DNA from: Candidatus Saccharimonadota bacterium
Lineage (GTDB): Bacteria; Patescibacteriota; Saccharimonadia; CAILAD01; BJGX01
NCBI GenBank assembly: GCA_037133995.1
Contig: JBAXNA010000003.1
Location: 1 to 38,273 of the forward strand
DNA length: 38,273 nucleotides
Direction of reading: 5' to 3'
Shown here: positions 2,328 through 33,459 of the stretch, piece by piece
How positions within the stretch are numbered: position 1 is the first letter of the stretch
Layout: each line of letters opens with the position of its first letter
The notes under the pieces: model-generated
What the model was told of the DNA's origin: nothing
The model's input: only the letters and a program-made list of their open reading frames with translations
Database searches by the model: none
Position numbers and translations under genes: made by a program

Positions 2328-5300
2328 ATGGCAAAAACCCCTGTTCAGAAACGCGTTTTTTTACACAAAAATAAAGAATTACTGTCCTTACCAAATCTTA
2401 TTAAAATCCAAACCGATGCCTACAATTGGTTTGTTGACGAAGGCCTCAAAGAACTATTCGCAGAAGCCACCCCAATAGAAGACTTCACCGGCAAGCGCTA
2501 CTCAATAAGCTTCAAAGACTATCACTATGAAGTTCCTAAATTCACTGAAATACAAGCCAAAGAAAAAAACCTAAGCTACGAATCTTCACTAAAAGTTACA
2601 GCCGAACTTCTTAACAAAGAAACAGGCGAAATCAAAACCCAAGAAATATTTTTAGGTGACTATCCTGTCATGACCGAACGCGGTACTTTTGTTATCAACG
2701 GCGTAGAGCGCGTTGTAGTAAGTCAGCTAGTACGAAGCCCTGGTGTATTCTTCACCCGCGAAAGCTCAGCCAACTATTTCGGAGCAAAAATAATTCCTAA
2801 CCGTGGCGCATGGCTAGAAATCGAAACTGGCCAAAACGGTGTAATGACCGTAAAAATAGATCGCAAACGAAAAATTCCAGTAACCGCACTTTTGCGGGCT
2901 TTTGGCTATGGCACAGATAAAGAACTAAAAGAACTATTTGCCGATATCGACACAGGTGAAGTTAAATTTATAGACGAAACAATCTCTAAAGACCCTAGCA
3001 GCTCAAGTGCTGAAGCCCTAATGGAAGTCTATAGACGTATTCGACCTGGCGATCTAGCCACAGTAGAAAATTCAAAAAGCTTAATTGACGGAATGTTTTT
3101 TGACAACAAACGGTATGATTTTTCAAAAGTAGGTCGTTACAAAGTTAACAAAAGACTTGGTCTAAACGTAAAAAATATTCCAGAAAATCGTATTCTAAGA
3201 AAAGAAGATTTTGTTGCCATAATCAAAGAAATCATCAGAATGAGTAACAGCGATGCCCCTACAGAAGACATCGACCACCTTGGCAATCGCCGCTTAAAAA
3301 TGGTTGGCGAACTTATGCAAGCTCGTTTTAGAGTTGGTATTTTGCGAACTGAAAGAATTATCAAAGACCGCATGAGTCTTGCTGATCCTGAAACTATTAT
3401 GCCAGCACAGCTAATCAACAACAGACCAATAGTCGCTGCAGTGAAAGAGTTTTTTGCTTCTCACCAACTCAGTCAGTTCATGGATCAAATCAATCCGTTG
3501 GCCGAAATTGTTCACAAGCGCCGTCTAAATGCCATGGGTCCTGGTGGCCTAAACAGAGAGCGAGCAGGCTTTGAGGTTCGCGACGTTCACAGAACTCACT
3601 ACGGTAGAATATGCCCAATCGAAACACCAGAAGGACCAAACATTGGTCTTGTAAGTACTATGGCGACTTACGCAAGAATTAATGAGTACGGATTTTTAGA
3701 AAGCCCATATCTAAAAGTAATTAACTCTGCCACTCCAGAAAAAGCGACAGGTGAGATTGCTGTAAAAGAGCTTAAGGACAGCAAGGGACAGTCAATAGTT
3801 AAGCCTGGAGACAAAATAACCTCTGCAATTGCCAAGAAATTAGCTTCAGCTAAGATTGAATCATTGCCAGTAAAGGCTCACGTTACTACAGAAGTTGTTT
3901 ATTTAGATGCCTCAGATGAAGAAAAAGCTGTTATCGCTCAGGCCAATACTCCATCAGACGAGAATGGCTACTTTATAGACTCACGAGTTCCAGTACGAGG
4001 AGTTGGTGGTGAAGCCGATGAAGAAGATGCTAATTTGGTCGAGTACATGGACGTCACCAGCAAACAAATCGTAGGTGTATCAGCTAGCCTTATTCCTTTC
4101 CTTGAGCACGATGATGCCAAGCGAGCCCTAATGGGAGCTAACATGCAACGACAAGCTGTAGCCCTAATCCGACCAGATTCTCCTGTTGTTGGTACTGGTA
4201 TAGAAGGAACTGTAGCAGTTGATTCTGGCCAAGTTATAATTGCTGAAGATGATGGCGAAGTAATATCTTCTACTGCCGAAGCCATTGTAGTAAAATATAA
4301 AAAATCAGGTACAAAAACTTACGAGCTTGCAAATTTTGTTCGCTCAAACCAAGGTAGCTGTATTCACCAAAAAGCCCTAGTCTACTCATCACAAAAAGTG
4401 ACCAAAGGCGATGTCTTAGCTGACGGTATGAGTACTCAGGCTGGTGAGCTAGCTCTAGGCCAAAATGTAGTAGTTGCATTTATGCCATTTGATGGACTCA
4501 ATTTTGAAGACGCTATTGTGCTCTCTCAGAGACTTGTACAAGATGACCGCTATACTAGTATCCACATCGAAACCCACCAAGTGGACGTTCGTGATACTAA
4601 GCTAGGCGATGAAGTTGTAACAAGAGATATACCTAACGTGTCAGAAGAAAGCCTAAAAGATCTTGACGAAGATGGTGTAATCAGAATAGGTGCAGAAGTT
4701 GGTGCAGGTGATATATTGGTAGGTAAGATTACTCCAAAAGGTGAAACCGAGCTATCAAGTGAAGAGCGTCTACTTAGAGCAATTTTTGGTGAAAAAGCTC
4801 GTGACGTAAAAGATACTAGCCTTAGAGTGCCTAACGGTGCCGCAGGAAAAGTTGTTGATGTTAAGATATTGAGTCGAGAAAATGGCGACGATCTATCTGC
4901 CGGCGTCTCACTACAGATATACGTATCTATTGCCGAGCTTCGTAAGATTCAGGCTGGTGACAAAATGGCCGGTCGACACGGTGACAAAGGCGTTATCTCA
5001 AAAATTATGCCTGTAGAAGATATGCCACATCTAGAAGACGGCACTCCTGTAGACGTAATCCTAAACACCCTTGGTGTTGGTAGTCGTATGAACCTTGGGC
5101 AGATTTTAGAAACCCACCTAGGTTGGGCTGCTCAGGCTCTAGGCTACAAAATAGCCAGCCCAGTTTTTGACGGTGTAACAATCGATGAAATAAAGGCCGA
5201 ACTCAAAAAAGCCGGACTTCCAGAAGATGGTAAAGCCCAGCTCTACTCTGGCTTTACAGGAGAGCCGCTAACACATAGGACAACTGTCGGTGTTAAATAT

Positions 5301-5843
5301 CTACTTAAACTACAACATATGGTAGACGACAAAATACACGCACGCTCAACCGGTCCATACGCTATGGTTACTCAGCAGCCACTCGGCGGTAAAGCCCAAA
5401 GAGGTGGACAGCGTTTCGGGGAAATGGAAGTTTGGGCCCTAGAAGCTTACGGTGCCGCAAATACACTTCAAGAAATACTAACCATCAAGTCAGATGATGT
5501 TATTGGCCGAAGCAAGGCTTACGAGTCAATAATAAAAGGCGAAGACATTATGGGACCTAGGGTACCAGAATCTTTCAACGTTTTAGTAAAAGAACTACAA
5601 AGCTTAATGCTTGCTGTAGACCTTGAAAGAAATGAGCTAGATACACCTGTTGATGCAGAAGATGTTATTGCCCAGGCTACTGCTGAAGAAGTAGAAGCAC
5701 TAGGCACAGACGAGCTAATTATGGGAACCGAGCCACCAGAAGGTGAAGCAATAGTTGATCTTGCAGACGCAAAAAGCAAAGACGACTTTGAAGTTCTAGA
5801 AGAAGCCCAGCTACAAAAAGAAATTGAATCGGAAGAGGTATAA
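2328..5843 (+). CDS. rpoB: DNA-directed RNA polymerase subunit beta
   Basis: GTFVINGVERVVVSQL, QLSQFMDQ, ETPEGPNIGL, ALMGANMQRQA, GGQRFGEMEVWALEAYGA. SD AGGAG upstream. Confidence 0.99.
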   Translation: MAKTPVQKRVFLHKNKELLSLPNLIKIQTDAYNWFVDEGLKELFAEATPIEDFTGKRYSISFKDYHYEVPKFTEIQAKEKNLSYESSLKVTAELLNKETGEIKTQEIFLGDYPVMTERGTFVINGVERVVVSQLVRSPGVFFTRESSANYFGAKIIPNRGAWLEIETGQNGVMTVKIDRKRKIPVTALLRAFGYGTDKELKELFADIDTGEVKFIDETISKDPSSSSAEALMEVYRRIRPGDLATVENSKSLIDGMFFDNKRYDFSKVGRYKVNKRLGLNVKNIPENRILRKEDFVAIIKEIIRMSNSDAPTEDIDHLGNRRLKMVGELMQARFRVGILRTERIIKDRMSLADPETIMPAQLINNRPIVAAVKEFFASHQLSQFMDQINPLAEIVHKRRLNAMGPGGLNRERAGFEVRDVHRTHYGRICPIETPEGPNIGLVSTMATYARINEYGFLESPYLKVINSATPEKATGEIAVKELKDSKGQSIVKPGDKITSAIAKKLASAKIESLPVKAHVTTEVVYLDASDEEKAVIAQANTPSDENGYFIDSRVPVRGVGGEADEEDANLVEYMDVTSKQIVGVSASLIPFLEHDDAKRALMGANMQRQAVALIRPDSPVVGTGIEGTVAVDSGQVIIAEDDGEVISSTAEAIVVKYKKSGTKTYELANFVRSNQGSCIHQKALVYSSQKVTKGDVLADGMSTQAGELALGQNVVVAFMPFDGLNFEDAIVLSQRLVQDDRYTSIHIETHQVDVRDTKLGDEVVTRDIPNVSEESLKDLDEDGVIRIGAEVGAGDILVGKITPKGETELSSEERLLRAIFGEKARDVKDTSLRVPNGAAGKVVDVKILSRENGDDLSAGVSLQIYVSIAELRKIQAGDKMAGRHGDKGVISKIMPVEDMPHLEDGTPVDVILNTLGVGSRMNLGQILETHLGWAAQALGYKIASPVFDGVTIDEIKAELKKAGLPEDGKAQLYSGFTGEPLTHRTTVGVKYLLKLQHMVDDKIHARSTGPYAMVTQQPLGGKAQRGGQRFGEMEVWALEAYGAANTLQEILTIKSDDVIGRSKAYESIIKGEDIMGPRVPESFNVLVKELQSLMLAVDLERNELDTPVDAEDVIAQATAEEVEALGTDELIMGTEPPEGEAIVDLADAKSKDDFEVLEEAQLQKEIESEEV

Positions 5844-5844
5844 A

Positions 5845-8800
5845 ATGGATAAGGACAACACTATGCACGAACAACAAATAATCGACTTTGATGCAATTAA
5901 GCTTTCTGTTGCTGGCCCAGAGCACATACTAGACTGGTCAAATGGCGAAGTTATCAAACCAGAAACAATCAACTATAGAACTCAAAAACCAGAAAAAGAT
6001 GGTTTATTCTGCGAAAAAATCTTTGGACCAACCAAAGACTGGCAGTGTTACTGTGGCAAATACAAGGGTATTCGTTACAAAGGAATCGAATGTGATAAAT
6101 GTGGAGTATTAGTTACTCGTAGCATTGTACGACGCGAAAGAATGGCCCATATAGCCCTTTGCGTACCAGTTGCTCACATTTGGTTCTTAAGAGGTACTCC
6201 AAGTCCAATAAGCCTTGTTTTAAACGTAGGTATTCGTGACTTAGAGCGTGTTGTTTATTTTGCAAATTTCATAGTCACTGATGTAGATGAAAAAGCTAAG
6301 GCAGATGCTATCGATGATCTTAAGAAAGACTTTGAATCTAAGCGCAAAGAGCTTATCGCAAAGTATGACATCAAGGGCGGTAAGGCTGAACTTATCCCAG
6401 AAGATGCTACAAAAGAATTTGCCGAGCTAGATGCCAACTGGGCAGCAGCAAAGACTGACTTAACCAACCTTGCTAAATACCAGCTCCTACCAGAAGGCCG
6501 TTACCGAGAGCTAAACATGAAGTTTGGTCAAGTTTTTAAAGCCGGAATAGGTGCTGAAGCCCTTCAGCAGTTACTCGAAGAGATTGATCTAAAAGAACTT
6601 ACTATTAGTCTTCGAAAAGAAGCCGACGAATCATCTGGCCAAAAGATGAAAAAAGCCCTCAAGCGACTTAAGCTAGTCGAAGGCATGGAGCAATCTGGTA
6701 TTTCGCCAGAGTGGATGATTACTACAAATCTACCTGTTATTCCACCAGACCTTCGCCCAATGGTTCAGCTTGATGGTGGCCGATTTGCCGCATCAGATCT
6801 AAACGATCTATACAGACGAGTCATAAACCGAAATAATCGTCTCAAGAAACTTTTCAGACTAGAAGCACCAGAAGTAATCTGTAGAAATGAAAAACGTATG
6901 TTGCAAGAAGCTGTTGATGCTCTTATAGACAACAACGCTCGTCGTGACCGAGCTGTAAGTGCTGCTGGTAGCCGCAAGAAGCTAAAAAGTCTTACAGATT
7001 TACTAAAAGGTAAGCAGGGTCGTTTCCGTCAAAACCTTTTGGGTAAACGCGTAGATTACTCTGGCCGATCAGTGATTGTTATTGGTCCTCACCTCAAGCT
7101 AGACCAGTGTGGATTACCAAAAATGATGGCCCTCGAGCTCTTTAAGCCATTTGTAATTGGCAAACTAATAGAAAAAGGCGTGGCTCATAATGTCAAATCA
7201 GCTTCTCGAATGATCGAGCGTGCCCGAACCGAAGTCTGGGATACTCTAGATGAAGTTATTACCGGCAAGTACGTATTGCTTAATCGTGCACCTACTTTGC
7301 ACCGCTTAGGTATTCAGGCCTTTAAGCCAGTGCTAATTGAAGGCAAAGCTATTCAGCTTCACCCAATGGTTTGTGCAGCTTTCAACGCCGACTTCGATGG
7401 TGACCAAATGGCCGTCCACGTACCTCTCTCAGCAGCAGCTCAGGCAGAGGCTCGCGATATCATGCTTTCAAAACACAACCTTCTCAAGCCAAGTAGTGGT
7501 GAGCCTGTTGTAAAGCCAAGCCAAGATGTTGTCTTGGGTTGCTTCTTCTTGACAAGCACTAAGCCAGGACTAAAGGGCGAAGGCAAGGCCTTCTCTAGTA
7601 CAAGTGAGGCAATCATGGCCTACCAGGCTGATGTAGTAGAATTGCGTGCTATGACAAAAGTAAGAGTTAACGGTGTAACAATCGAAACAACCCCAGGACG
7701 CCTAATATTTAACGAAATACTGCCAGCAGAAATAGACTTTGTAAATGAGACCCTAAACAAATCTCGACTACAGGCCATTATGGCGAAAGTTTTTGCAGAG
7801 CTTGGCCAAGAAGTTACAGCAGTACTTGTAGACGACGTCAAAGACCTTGGCTTTAAGTACTCAACTATTTCAGGTATCTCAATCGGCATGGACGATCTAG
7901 TAGTTCCTGAACAAAGAGACGGCTTGATTGCAGAAGGCGAACTAAAAGTGCTTGAATACGTTTCTCAATACCAGCAAGGTCTAATAACTAACGAAGAGCG
8001 TTATGCTCGTACTGTAGACGTCTGGAAAGGCGTTGGTGAAGAAGTTGAGTCACTACTAGGCGAAGCTCTAGCTAACTCAGATTCGACCCTACAAGATGAT
8101 CTTCAGTCTGGCGCTCGTGCTAGCCTTGGACAGATTAACAAAATGAGCGGTATGCTAGGCCTTATGCTTAGCCCAGCTGGTCGAGTTATCGAGCTTCCAG
8201 TTCGCTCAAACTACAAAGATGGTCTAGGAGTACTTGAGTACTTTATTAGTACTCACGGCGCCCGAAAAGGCCTTACTGACACCGCCCTAAGAACTTCTGA
8301 GTCTGGCTACCTAACTCGCAGACTTGTTGATGTAGCTCAAGATATAGTTATTTCTGAAAACGACTGTGGCGACAAAGAAGGTTACTCAATGAGCCTAGCC
8401 GAAGCTAAGGCAGTAGGCGAAGAAAGCCTATCAGCCTGGATAGTTGGCCGTACTTCGCTTGAGAAGATCGTGGATCCTAAGACCAATGATGTAATTGTTA
8501 AAAAAGGACAGCTAATAACCGATGTGACAGCTAAGCAAATAGCCGACATTGGCCTAGGAACAATCAAGATTAGATCAATATTTAAATGTCAAAGCGCTTG
8601 GGGCTTATGCCAAAAATGTTACGGCATAGATCTAGCTAAGGGCAACCCAGTACGACTAGGAGAAGCAGTTGGTATTATGGCAGCTCAGAGTATTGGCGAG
8701 CCAGGAACTCAGCTTACTATGAACACCAAGCATGCAACTGGTATTGGCGGAGACATCACCCAGGGTCTGCCACGAGTAGAAGAAATTTTTGAAGCTCGGG

Positions 8801-9633
8801 CACCAAAAGGTCAAGCAATTCTTTCTGAAATAGACGGTACCGTCAAGCTCAGTAAGTCGGGTGTTAAGCAAGTAGTTAGCGTTATCCCTGCCGATCAAAA
8901 AGTAACTAACTATGATCTAAAAGACATGACTCCAAAAGTAAAAACCGGTGCGGGAGTCATTCGCTCTCAGATACTTGCTAAATCTAGCGATGGTAAAAAA
9001 ACCATCAAGGCTGGTGGCATTGGTACCGTAACAGTTGAAGCTGACAAGATTGTACTAACCCACGACAGCGGAAACAGCCGAGAATACACTCTGTCTGAAT
9101 ACACAACCCTAGAGGTCAAGAATGGTGACCAGGTAGTAGTGGGACAGCGTCTAAGCGAGGGATCAGTGAACTTGCAAGATATGCTAAGACTACAGGGCGA
9201 AGAAGCCGTTCAGCGCTATGTGATTGACGAAGTACAGGCTATTTACTTGAGCCAGGGTCAAACTATCTCTGCTAAGCATATTGAAGTTATGATCAGGCAA
9301 ATGTTCTCTAGGGTGCGTATAGAAGAACCAAATGACACCGAGTTTATATCTGGTGATGTGGTTTCTAGAGCTGCTCTAGCAGAAGAAAATGCTCTAGTAA
9401 AAGAGCGCAAAGGCAAGATTGCTACATACGAGAAGCTTCTAATGCCAATTACTAAAATATCAACAAGCTCAGATAGCTGGTTATCAGCTGCTAGTTTCCA
9501 AGAAACTACCAAGGTATTGATAGCTGCAGCAATGCGCGGTAAGCAAGACAAATTGCGTGGGCTTAAAGAGAACGTTATCATTGGCCGCCTTATTCCAGTA
9601 GGAACAGGCTTTCATGATGATGAGCAGGCTTGA
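5845..9633 (+). CDS. rpoC: DNA-directed RNA polymerase subunit beta'
   Basis: Catalytic NADFDGD, both Zn sites, bridge helix GARKGLTDTALRT. Start moved from 5824 to ATG 5845 (GAGG upstream). ATG 5863 (AAGGA upstream) is an alternative start. Confidence 0.99.
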   Translation: MDKDNTMHEQQIIDFDAIKLSVAGPEHILDWSNGEVIKPETINYRTQKPEKDGLFCEKIFGPTKDWQCYCGKYKGIRYKGIECDKCGVLVTRSIVRRERMAHIALCVPVAHIWFLRGTPSPISLVLNVGIRDLERVVYFANFIVTDVDEKAKADAIDDLKKDFESKRKELIAKYDIKGGKAELIPEDATKEFAELDANWAAAKTDLTNLAKYQLLPEGRYRELNMKFGQVFKAGIGAEALQQLLEEIDLKELTISLRKEADESSGQKMKKALKRLKLVEGMEQSGISPEWMITTNLPVIPPDLRPMVQLDGGRFAASDLNDLYRRVINRNNRLKKLFRLEAPEVICRNEKRMLQEAVDALIDNNARRDRAVSAAGSRKKLKSLTDLLKGKQGRFRQNLLGKRVDYSGRSVIVIGPHLKLDQCGLPKMMALELFKPFVIGKLIEKGVAHNVKSASRMIERARTEVWDTLDEVITGKYVLLNRAPTLHRLGIQAFKPVLIEGKAIQLHPMVCAAFNADFDGDQMAVHVPLSAAAQAEARDIMLSKHNLLKPSSGEPVVKPSQDVVLGCFFLTSTKPGLKGEGKAFSSTSEAIMAYQADVVELRAMTKVRVNGVTIETTPGRLIFNEILPAEIDFVNETLNKSRLQAIMAKVFAELGQEVTAVLVDDVKDLGFKYSTISGISIGMDDLVVPEQRDGLIAEGELKVLEYVSQYQQGLITNEERYARTVDVWKGVGEEVESLLGEALANSDSTLQDDLQSGARASLGQINKMSGMLGLMLSPAGRVIELPVRSNYKDGLGVLEYFISTHGARKGLTDTALRTSESGYLTRRLVDVAQDIVISENDCGDKEGYSMSLAEAKAVGEESLSAWIVGRTSLEKIVDPKTNDVIVKKGQLITDVTAKQIADIGLGTIKIRSIFKCQSAWGLCQKCYGIDLAKGNPVRLGEAVGIMAAQSIGEPGTQLTMNTKHATGIGGDITQGLPRVEEIFEARAPKGQAILSEIDGTVKLSKSGVKQVVSVIPADQKVTNYDLKDMTPKVKTGAGVIRSQILAKSSDGKKTIKAGGIGTVTVEADKIVLTHDSGNSREYTLSEYTTLEVKNGDQVVVGQRLSEGSVNLQDMLRLQGEEAVQRYVIDEVQAIYLSQGQTISAKHIEVMIRQMFSRVRIEEPNDTEFISGDVVSRAALAEENALVKERKGKIATYEKLLMPITKISTSSDSWLSAASFQETTKVLIAAAMRGKQDKLRGLKENVIIGRLIPVGTGFHDDEQA

Positions 9634-32377: not shown

Positions 32378-32426
32378 TCTTGTGTCTCAGCTGGCAATGT
32401 ATTGTTTAGAAAATACATTGTCTAGA

Positions 32427-32460
32427 AGCAAAAAGGCCCACTAAGATGGGTCTTTTTGCT
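32427..32460 (+). terminator. Intrinsic terminator after rpsI
   Basis: AGCAAAAAGGCCCA-ctaaga-TGGGTCTTTTTGCT, preceded by a second hairpin CAATGTATT/AATACATTG. Confidence 0.85.
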
Positions 32461-32472
32461 ATAATAGTACTT

Positions 32473-33459
32473 ATGTCACCAAGCCGTAAAACCTTTCTTA
32501 AACTTGCAGCAGGTAGTTTGGCAATTGTTGTGGCCGCAACGGTGGTATTTAGCATATCTGAGTCTATAAGCCTGCCAGAGGGCTTGTACCGAACGATATA
32601 CATTACTCTGTCTCATCATGACAACTTCCATATGGAAAATTGGATTGCTAGAATAACTATAATCGTTCTAATTGTCGCAAGCTTACTGGTTATTGCCTAT
32701 TTGCTCAAAACGCTCGCAGACTATATGATTAACTTAGGAGATGGATTAAAAAGAAATAAGATGAAAGCAAAACTAGTAAACATCAACGATCACTATATTG
32801 TCTGCGGGCTCGGCCGAGTGGGCAGTCACATAGCCAAAGAATTAGCCACAGAAGGGGTTAAGTTTGTAGGTATAGATAGAAACGAAGAGTTAGTAAAGGC
32901 CGCAATAGCCAAAGGCTATACCGCCATAGTGGGAGACAGTACCAAAGAAGAGGTATTGATGCGGGCAAAGCTCGACAAAGCCAGGGGCTTAGTTGCGGCC
33001 TTAAGCCATGACTCGAGTAATTTATTCGTGACCCTTACAGCTAGACAGATTAACCCAGCGCTATATATTGTCGCCCGTGCAAATCATGAGGAAAATATTA
33101 GTAGAATAGAAAAAGCCGGTGCAGACAAAGTTGCCATGCCAAATCAAATTGGCGGATTCCACATGGCAACAATGCTAATTCGCCCTAACGTAGTAGATTT
33201 TATAGACGTTCTAAGCAATAAGGCCAGCGCTGATTTACAGGTGGAGGAAATGGTTGTAGTAAAAGGATCAAAGCTAGTTGGTAGCAAACTAGGACATTTT
33301 TTGCAGGCATCTGCGTCTGGCAGTACAGTCTTGGCTTTAAATAGCCTAGACGGCACCAGTAAGGTCAATCCTAGCGGTCAAGAAATAATCTACGCCGGCG
33401 ATAAGATGATTATGATGGGTACTCGAGAGCAGCTTGACTCGCTTGGTCGGCATATTTAA
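32473..33459 (+). CDS. 2TM ion channel with RCK_N/RCK_C (TrkA-type) gating domains; non-canonical filter
   Basis: TM1-pore helix-TM2, then HYIVCGLGRVG Rossmann RCK_N and RCK_C. Start moved to ATG 32473 because 32446 lies inside the terminator and TGcTATAAT (32457-32465) precedes 32473. Confidence 0.88.
   Translation: MSPSRKTFLKLAAGSLAIVVAATVVFSISESISLPEGLYRTIYITLSHHDNFHMENWIARITIIVLIVASLLVIAYLLKTLADYMINLGDGLKRNKMKAKLVNINDHYIVCGLGRVGSHIAKELATEGVKFVGIDRNEELVKAAIAKGYTAIVGDSTKEEVLMRAKLDKARGLVAALSHDSSNLFVTLTARQINPALYIVARANHEENISRIEKAGADKVAMPNQIGGFHMATMLIRPNVVDFIDVLSNKASADLQVEEMVVVKGSKLVGSKLGHFLQASASGSTVLALNSLDGTSKVNPSGQEIIYAGDKMIMMGTREQLDSLGRHI

Follow-up and report, generated by a model that had tools for sequence, protein, structure and literature searches.

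Among the described channels with two transmembrane (2TM) helices and a C-terminal RCK domain are MthK, the Ca2+-gated channel of Methanothermobacter (PDB 1lnq, 6oly), and GsuK, a multi-ligand-gated 2TM K+ channel (PDB 4gx0-4gx5) that is bound to NAD according to the PDB titles. RCK domains of the KTN type also form the soluble rings of KtrA and TrkA, which gate KtrB and TrkH. The T-x-G-Y-G filter of K+ channels is a textbook structure-function rule. A recent survey of small-genome prokaryotes counts 2TM-RCK K+ channels as one of five minimal channel architectures and states that, in its small-genome set of these channels, conservation of the filter glycine is complete (bioRxiv 10.64898/2026.03.26.714534). 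Here we analysed a 2TM-RCK protein encoded by the open reading frame (ORF) at positions 32473-33459 (+ strand) of contig JBAXNA010000003.1 from a Candidatus Saccharimonadota bacterium; the window, i.e. the whole stretch of DNA analysed, comprises 38,273 nucleotides. The product of this ORF, hereafter the His-loop protein, carries a glycine-free loop at the place of the filter. We conclude that it is a real, conserved and derived member of the 2TM-RCK channel superfamily, belonging to a family that is a conserved membrane protein of freshwater Saccharibacteria, and that it is almost certainly no longer a K+-selective channel. Since the filter and the hinge, two defining sequence features, both fail, the protein does not belong under the heading of K+ channels.

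The His-loop protein has the same length and order of parts as MthK, with one RCK_N and one RCK_C domain, and MthK was its best structural match, full-length MthK chains being the top matches in Foldseek (E-value 1e-21, about 320 columns). The family profile aligned over positions 10-327 in one stretch with MthK 22-334 (E-value 4e-28), and GsuK was also aligned. Compared with MthK, the His-loop protein lacks the T-V-G-Y-G filter and the hinge glycine, and its RCK domain carries a G-x-G-x-x-G nucleotide fingerprint. The best PDB match of the RCK domain by sequence was the second RCK domain of GsuK (E-value 1.8e-27), followed by KtrA, with MthK ranking below the top five alignments. The name "MthK-like", given in the first-pass annotation, holds for the architecture, whereas by sequence the RCK domain is closest to these two. 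Chains of GsuK contain two RCK domains each and have T-T-L-G-F-G-D as their filter, whereas the His-loop protein has one RCK domain and a loop without glycine. With KtrA and TrkA it shares G-L-G-R-x-G, the Asp of strand 2, and both RCK_N and RCK_C, but it has a membrane domain of its own, and no separate TrkH or KtrB was found in 60 genomes of the order or 301 of the class.

The P-loop motifs of CNG channels and the single-glycine motifs of TrkH/KtrB, together with NaK, are precedents for a K-channel fold whose filter is altered and whose selectivity is relaxed, and their likeness to the His-loop protein is functional only: each of these is known to retain one filter glycine or more along with an ion pathway of backbone carbonyls, whereas the His-loop clade keeps none. 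The filter motif of NaK is TVGDG according to the abstract of PMC9822992. The nearest neighbours outside the clade are 2TM-RCK relatives with a T-V-G-[YF]-x-E filter (33-37% identity), among which altered filters are common; these retain the first filter glycine and the hinge glycine (109 of 119), and the His-loop clade has lost all three.

The glycine-free loop and the remodelled inner helix

The coding sequence starts with the ATG at 32473, its stop codon ends at 33459, and it encodes 328 amino acids, read from translation, Pfam and an AlphaFold2 model as a protein in which a 2TM pore domain is followed by an RCK domain at the C-terminus. The model, built on a 39-row family alignment (A1), had a mean predicted local distance difference test score (pLDDT) of 81.7, with values of 81-90 at residues 11-80 and of 71-78 at both ends of the 1-100 stretch. 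It placed helices at residues 5-29, 34-47 and 57-102, with residues 48-56 forming a loop; this is how K channels are laid out, namely as transmembrane helix 1 (TM1), pore helix, loop and transmembrane helix 2 (TM2). TM1 (residues 5-29, 32485..32559) is preceded by the basic residues R5, K6 and K10, which suggests that the N-terminus is cytoplasmic. The pore helix (residues 34-47, 32572..32613, from the model and alignments) contains EGLYRTIYITL at residues 36-46; E36 and Y39 are invariant in A1, and among 30 orthologous loci Y39 and L46 are found in 30/30 and E36 in 29/30. TM2, the inner helix, spans residues 57-88 (32641..32736), with the modelled helix extending to residue 102, and includes LIVASLL at residues 66-72. 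It is joined to the RCK domain by the linker L88-G89-D90-G91-L92 (32734..32748), every residue of which is present in 30/30 of the aligned genes, and which varies in relatives outside the clade. The RCK_N/KTN Rossmann domain (TrkA_N, 32794..33141, Pfam E-value 5.8e-36) and the RCK_C domain (TrkA_C, 33244..33447, Pfam E-value 1.7e-9) follow. All parts named in the first-pass annotation, i.e. TM1, the pore helix EGLYRTIYITL, TM2, RCK_N with GLGRVG, and RCK_C, were thus present by translation, Pfam and modelling.

The pore loop (32611..32631) stands at the place of the T-V-G-Y-G-D filter in the alignments. Its codons, tct cat cat gac aac ttc cat, translate to S47-H48-H49-D50-N51-F52-H53, and sequence and translation agree with the earlier claim of a histidine-rich replacement without glycine. 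No glycine is found at residues 47-56, and the T-x-G-[YF]-G pattern is absent, whereas relatives have T-V-G-Y/F-G at this position. The register of the loop is uncertain by one residue, as MAFFT and HMMER pair H48 with the first filter glycine and D50 with the second, and an ungapped alternative counted from the conserved Tyr pairs H49 with the first glycine and N51 with the second; both registers place non-glycine residues at both filter glycine positions.

We looked at the loop in the query and its best 120 homologues, 121 proteins in all, of which 4 were N-terminally cut and excluded. H-x-D was present in 116 of the remaining 117, the other one having R-A-D; homologues therefore carry neither TVGYG nor random sequence here, either of which, according to the first-pass annotation, would have spoken for drift or assembly error. 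In the 30 orthologous genes H48 (32614-32616) is always His (CAT 11, CAC 19) and D50 (32620-32622) always Asp (GAT 22, GAC 8), and Y39 and L46 are likewise invariant across synonymous codons in 30/30. The other loop positions vary among the same genes: position 49 is H in 23, F in 6 and V in 1, position 51 is N in 22, H in 7 and A in 1, and position 53 is H in 18, G in 8 and K in 4. Of the HHD triplet whose conservation was to be checked, the outer two residues were therefore invariant, but the middle one was not. Among 123 proteins, His occurred at position 49 in 90, at position 51 in 29, at both in none and at neither in 4, a pattern that reflects few independent events, with each of the two positions changing just about 4 times on the tree.

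We took 128 representative 2TM-RCK proteins of 290-400 amino acids from an exhaustive search. Of these, 53 had a T-x-G-[YFLH]-G filter, 58 kept the first glycine with the second replaced, and a handful were free of glycine. The glycine-free proteins formed one clade of 24 tips with a support of 0.991 (FastTree, midpoint root). We take the glycine-free state as derived, from the universality of TVGYG, the direction of the root being unproven in a midpoint-rooted tree. The clade differs from its relatives in TM2 as well. S70 (32680-32682) occupies the hinge-glycine position, which is Ser in 22/24 clade members versus Gly in 109/119 relatives outside, so that the gating-hinge glycine of 2TM-RCK K+ channels is missing, as had been claimed from LIVASLL. 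Position 59 is Ser or Ala in 22/24 members versus Gly in 110/119 outside, position 72 is Ile, Val or Leu in 21/24 versus Gly in 73/119, and position 79 is Lys in 21/24, K79 standing where the relatives mostly have Gly, Ser or Thr. The clade has conserved residues of its own, namely S70, K79, Y76, Y84 and G89-D90-G91. The pore changes in the clade are coordinated and conserved, and not drift.

The T-V-G-[YF]-x-E filters were found in 58 of the 128 representatives (P0129-P0270), with the second glycine mostly replaced by R, S, Q or K and the hinge glycine kept. This filter looks widespread and undescribed; the literature searched (openly readable papers, main texts) held nothing relevant on TVG[YF]xE variants, and nothing on the His-loop family or on a His-containing P-loop in RCK proteins.

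Conservation of the gene and the ion-transport repertoire

The loop is no artefact of one assembly: it is identical in contigs from four further public runs, each spanning at least 32400-32731. The best 120 database homologues had 50-99% identity and about 325-337 amino acids, and none had a precomputed Ion_trans_2 call. In the order, one strong match to the family profile was found in 55/60 genomes and 24/24 genera, and in the 301-genome class sample a strong match, defined as an E-value of 1e-99 or better, was found in 106 genomes. The other 43 profile matches in the class sample were RCK-only, weak (60 bits or less) and different proteins. The locus order L17-L13-S9-gene-RluD-HolB was kept in 30/30 loci, the His-loop gene lying between rpsI and rluD, and its product has changed at roughly the slow pace of the ribosomal proteins encoded beside it, less quickly than RluD or HolB.

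The ratio of nonsynonymous to synonymous substitution rates (dN/dS, Nei-Gojobori), calculated from the 13 unsaturated pairs out of 435, was 0.044 for the whole gene. By region it was 0.20 for TM1, where conservation is lowest (mean pairwise identity 0.33), 0.085 for the pore helix and loop, 0.02 for TM2 and 0.019 for RCK_N. The membrane domain is thus under purifying selection, with TM2 constrained like the RCK fold, and because the values for TM2 and for the pore helix and loop are so low, the domain should be more than a plain membrane anchor. Purifying selection, single-copy occurrence as a core gene and constant synteny bear out the earlier view that the gene was repurposed and not decayed, and the identical loop in four other runs answers the concern about assembly error raised with it.

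ORFs of about 560-590 amino acids were common in class members without the His-loop family (G216, G077, G086, G238 and others). Their middle part matched only the RCK_N part of the profile, with 40-60 bits, and they may encode a Kef-like antiporter with an RCK domain.

We also searched for other ion-transport systems in the own genome of the His-loop protein (651 kb, 92.5% complete), in 60 genomes of the order and in the class sample. In the own genome, the His-loop gene was the only one with an RCK (TrkA_N) domain; no TrkH (PF02386), CPA antiporter (Na_H_Exchanger), CorA or ZIP was found, and one MgtE and two P-type ATPases were present. TrkH was found in 0/60 genomes of the order and in 0/301 of the class sample, and Kup and KdpA were each found in 0/60 genomes of the order. 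The only Ion_trans_2 match in the own genome was a small canonical pore-only channel (...ATLATVGYGN...) without an RCK domain, located at G000:C25:7657-7857 on the - strand (locus L001 1429-1707), its ORF of at least 92 amino acids being truncated where the contig stops. In the order, 45/60 genomes had similar ORFs, 100-145 amino acids long. Both proteins occurred in 41 of the 60 genomes, the His-loop protein only in 14 (9 of them at least 90% complete), the small channel only in 4, and neither in 1; within one genus, 4 genomes had the small channel only, 2 the His-loop protein only and 1 both. This phyletic pattern shows the two proteins to be independent of each other.

Family f11, the largest in the class sample with 102 genomes, had no strong match to the His-loop profile, 8 genomes with Ion_trans_2 and none with TrkH. 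In 94 of the 102 f11 genomes no Ion_trans_2 match was found at all. The argument that the His-loop protein must be a K+ route as nothing else exists is weak, most f11 genomes lacking the His-loop protein, Ion_trans_2 and TrkH alike. K+ uptake in these bacteria is not accounted for by known systems in the genomes searched, and how they handle K+, protons and metals is a question on which the His-loop family bears.

Assembly model and possible functions

The membrane domain is related to K channels by several signs beyond the full-length alignments. The membrane domains of some family members scored 19-23 bits on Ion_trans_2, and the language-model (Atlas) features of residues 1-105 were nearest to Ion_trans_2 clusters (0.91). 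When four copies of residues 1-105 were modelled with the family alignment, the interface score ipSAE was 0.77 versus 0.00 for the best control; in the calibration the mark used was reached by 20/30 solved pairs and 1/23 single chains, counts that apply here only roughly. Runs shared 95% or more of their contacts, and pLDDT was 83 or more. The modelled contacts are of the K-channel type, with the pore helix (39-47) against residues 60-71 of the neighbour and residues 78-92 forming a bundle. In the loop, residues 48 and 50 contact residues 43, 46 and 47 of the neighbour, and only residue 49 contacts all copies, which would put residue 49 on the axis. These contacts fit the ungapped register, in which H48 stands at the Val and D50 at the Tyr position, both off-axis. 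They suggest a buttressing role for the invariant H48 and D50, with residue 49 as the one lining the axis. In the first-pass annotation, a tetramer was expected to bring as many as 12 His, along with 4 Asp, to the outer pore mouth. This picture is weakened: H48 and D50 are invariant, but H49 and H53 vary, and in the four-copy model residues 48 and 50 face the neighbouring pore helix, leaving only residue 49 as axial.

The RCK domain has the KTN-type fingerprint G-x-G-x-x-G...D. G112-L-G-R-V-G117 (nucleotides 32806-32823) aligns with G-L-G-R-F-G of KtrA, including the Arg at KtrA position 16, and D135, which ends strand 2, aligns with the corresponding Asp in KtrA and in the second RCK domain of GsuK; G112, G114 and G117 are invariant and D135 nearly so. 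This fingerprint predicts nucleotide binding.

We believe that a nucleotide-regulated tetrameric pore with a side-chain-lined constriction that is not K+-selective is the best account of these data, although we hold it tentatively, at a little less than an even chance. The His-loop protein would be an inner-membrane protein in which TM1, pore helix, loop and TM2 are fused to one KTN-type RCK domain. Most likely it would form a tetramer about a shared axis, like MthK and GsuK. The RCK domains, on the cytoplasmic side, would most likely have an adenine nucleotide as their ligand (ATP/ADP or NAD(H)) and control TM2 via the invariant L-G-D-G-L linker. With other residues in place of both filter glycines and of the hinge glycine, no K+ cage of backbone carbonyls can form, and a short side-chain constriction would take its place, lined by S/T47 and by residue 49, which is His, or else Phe, Val or Tyr with His at 51 instead. 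H48 and D50, packed on the pore helix of the neighbouring subunit, would hold the loop in place. Our best guess for the activity is a weakly selective, nucleotide-regulated cation conductance (K+/Na+/H+), with the histidines conferring external pH or metal sensitivity.

A number of points weigh against this account. The His-loop protein itself scored only 10 bits on Ion_trans_2 (PF07885; E-value 0.86, cut-off 22.5), and a sequence search with residues 1-105 alone found no channel in the PDB. The tetramer score supports assembly, but it may stem from the model's memory of, or likeness to, solved K channels, and the four-copy run used our own family alignment. All four residues 49 meet at the axis in the model, so a closed or plugged pore is possible, and the loss of the hinge glycine together with a conserved Lys79 would be odd for a gated cation pore. 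KtrA E125, which we take to be related to activation, aligns with N224 of the His-loop protein, and KtrA-like activation is therefore not assured. A few clade members lack H-x-D, having T-R-A-D (P0083), T-H-F-P-H (P0124), T-R-Y-P-A (P0127) and S-H-F-Y-H (P0123) instead, and 3 of the 106 strong matches in the class sample (G054, G068, G150) have a stop or are split. The base of the dN/dS values is small, and the f11 counts indicate that Saccharimonadia can live without a recognised K+ system. Conduction and selectivity are properties that we infer rather than observe.

The main rival reading is a non-conducting membrane RCK sensor, with the pore domain as a tetramerising scaffold only and with an outer His/Asp loop that binds protons or metal and reports that, or nucleotide status, onward. 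In its favour, none of the three hallmark glycines is left, the four residues 49 converge on the axis of the model, H, F, V and Y are all accepted at position 49, Lys79 is conserved in the inner helix, and the invariant residues lie in an outward-facing loop. We nevertheless consider a sensor rather unlikely, since the genome holds no partner for it (no TrkH, no CPA antiporter, no second RCK protein), the neighbours are housekeeping genes unrelated to transport, and the dN/dS of TM2, 0.02 versus 0.019 for the RCK domain, is tighter than a scaffold needs. We know of no precedent for such a membrane RCK sensor, and none was found in the literature searched.

The invariance of H48 and D50, the presence of His at 49 or 51 in 119/123 proteins and never at both, and the axial residue 49 of the model could also be read as a selective proton or transition-metal (Zn/Ni/Co/Fe) channel, in which an axial His ring (H49 or H51) would be backed by H48 and D50 and gated by the RCK domains, by analogy with the His tetrad of influenza M2. 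The lack of a ZIP or CorA family transporter in the genome is in keeping with this. Such a channel is unlikely in our judgement, because the model turns H48 and D50 towards the adjacent subunit rather than the axis, the 49/51 pattern comes down to about 4 changes on the tree, MgtE (a Mg2+ route) and two P-type ATPases are already present, and no known metal-transporter motif matches. The broader proposal, that environmental Saccharimonadia rebuilt the K-channel pore as a nucleotide-gated proton or transition-metal channel with a His ring (49 or 51) and a His-Asp buttress, is similarly doubtful. If the proton or metal reading were true, the family would provide the first case of an RCK-gated P-loop channel that selects such ions by means of side chains, and it would be a core part of the ion economy of reduced-genome epibionts.

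It is very unlikely that the His-loop protein serves the small TVGYG channel as a regulatory subunit, supplying its RCK ring and either gating it or assembling with it. The same genome does encode this canonical channel without an RCK domain, and 41/60 genomes of the order have both genes, but the His-loop protein occurs alone in 14/60 and the reverse is seen in 4/60, the genes were never adjacent in the loci examined (6 kb apart in G055), and the homotetramer model is confident on its own. An obligate partnership is rejected on the phyletic pattern. Finally, decay of a K+ channel gene, or a mistake in sequencing or assembly, would agree with the Ion_trans_2 score under the cut-off and with the 3 interrupted copies among 106 genomic matches, yet we dismiss it as next to impossible given the identical loop in contigs of four runs, the occurrence in 55/60 genomes and 24/24 genera with a dN/dS of 0.044, and the invariance of H48 and D50 across synonymous codons.

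Whichever function applies, the His-loop family breaks the filter-glycine rule and is at the same time strongly conserved, single-copy and present in 106/301 genomes of the class, and it thus offers a natural experiment on a K-channel scaffold without the carbonyl cage. Databases name the protein "voltage-gated potassium channel" (JGI) and "NAD-binding protein" or "TrkA family potassium uptake protein" (NCBI), much as the first-pass annotation had predicted for automatic pipelines, and the two names that refer to potassium probably mislead metabolic reconstructions.

Start site, transcription signals and upstream genes

Between the stop codon of rpsI (32377) and the His-loop gene, a hairpin GGCCCA-CTAAGA-TGGGTC followed by T5 was read from the + strand (32435..32457), and a hairpin scan called the same hairpin on the - strand (32450..32437). 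It probably ends the ribosomal-protein transcript. An extended -10 element, TGcTATAAT (32457..32465, + strand), lies 7 nucleotides before the ATG, and reading of the sequence upstream of the ATG at 32473 showed no -35 match and no Shine-Dalgarno sequence. TATAAT was seen by eye 6-26 nucleotides before the start in 30/30 orthologous loci (L003-L032), and 6-8 nucleotides before it in 24/30. This arrangement suggests a leaderless or nearly leaderless mRNA from the gene's own promoter, and the conserved placement of TATAAT supports 32473 as the start. No RNA run containing this part of the contig was found. The "strong promoter" of the first-pass annotation did not hold up, as a two-hexamer consensus scan found no + strand promoter upstream of the gene and only the extended -10 element is present. 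Some databases give an alternative 337-amino-acid form from the ATG at 32446, which lies inside the hairpin and before the -10 box; most homologues begin at the MSPS... position and not at the start of this longer form.

An internal start producing a soluble RCK domain, as in MthK, was considered and rejected. Codon 97 is ATG or GTG in just 20/30 genomes (ATG 13, GTG 7, GTA 7, ATA 2, GTT 1), and a GGAGA in codons 89-90 is too far upstream of codon 97 to serve as a ribosome-binding site, leaving a conserved internal start of the MthK kind unsupported.

The interrupted copies mentioned above (G054:C35:2481-3449, G068:C1:74341-75309 and G150:C1:894629-895602) had an in-frame stop, TGA or TAA, or two overlapping frames; they may be pseudogenes, sequencing errors or cases of recoding. 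Upstream of the gene, positions 1-32377 of the window hold a long run of ORFs on the same strand, including two very long ones at 2328-5843 and 5824-9633. The run ends just before the His-loop gene with L17, L13 and S9, which were identified as the queries that found the orthologues.

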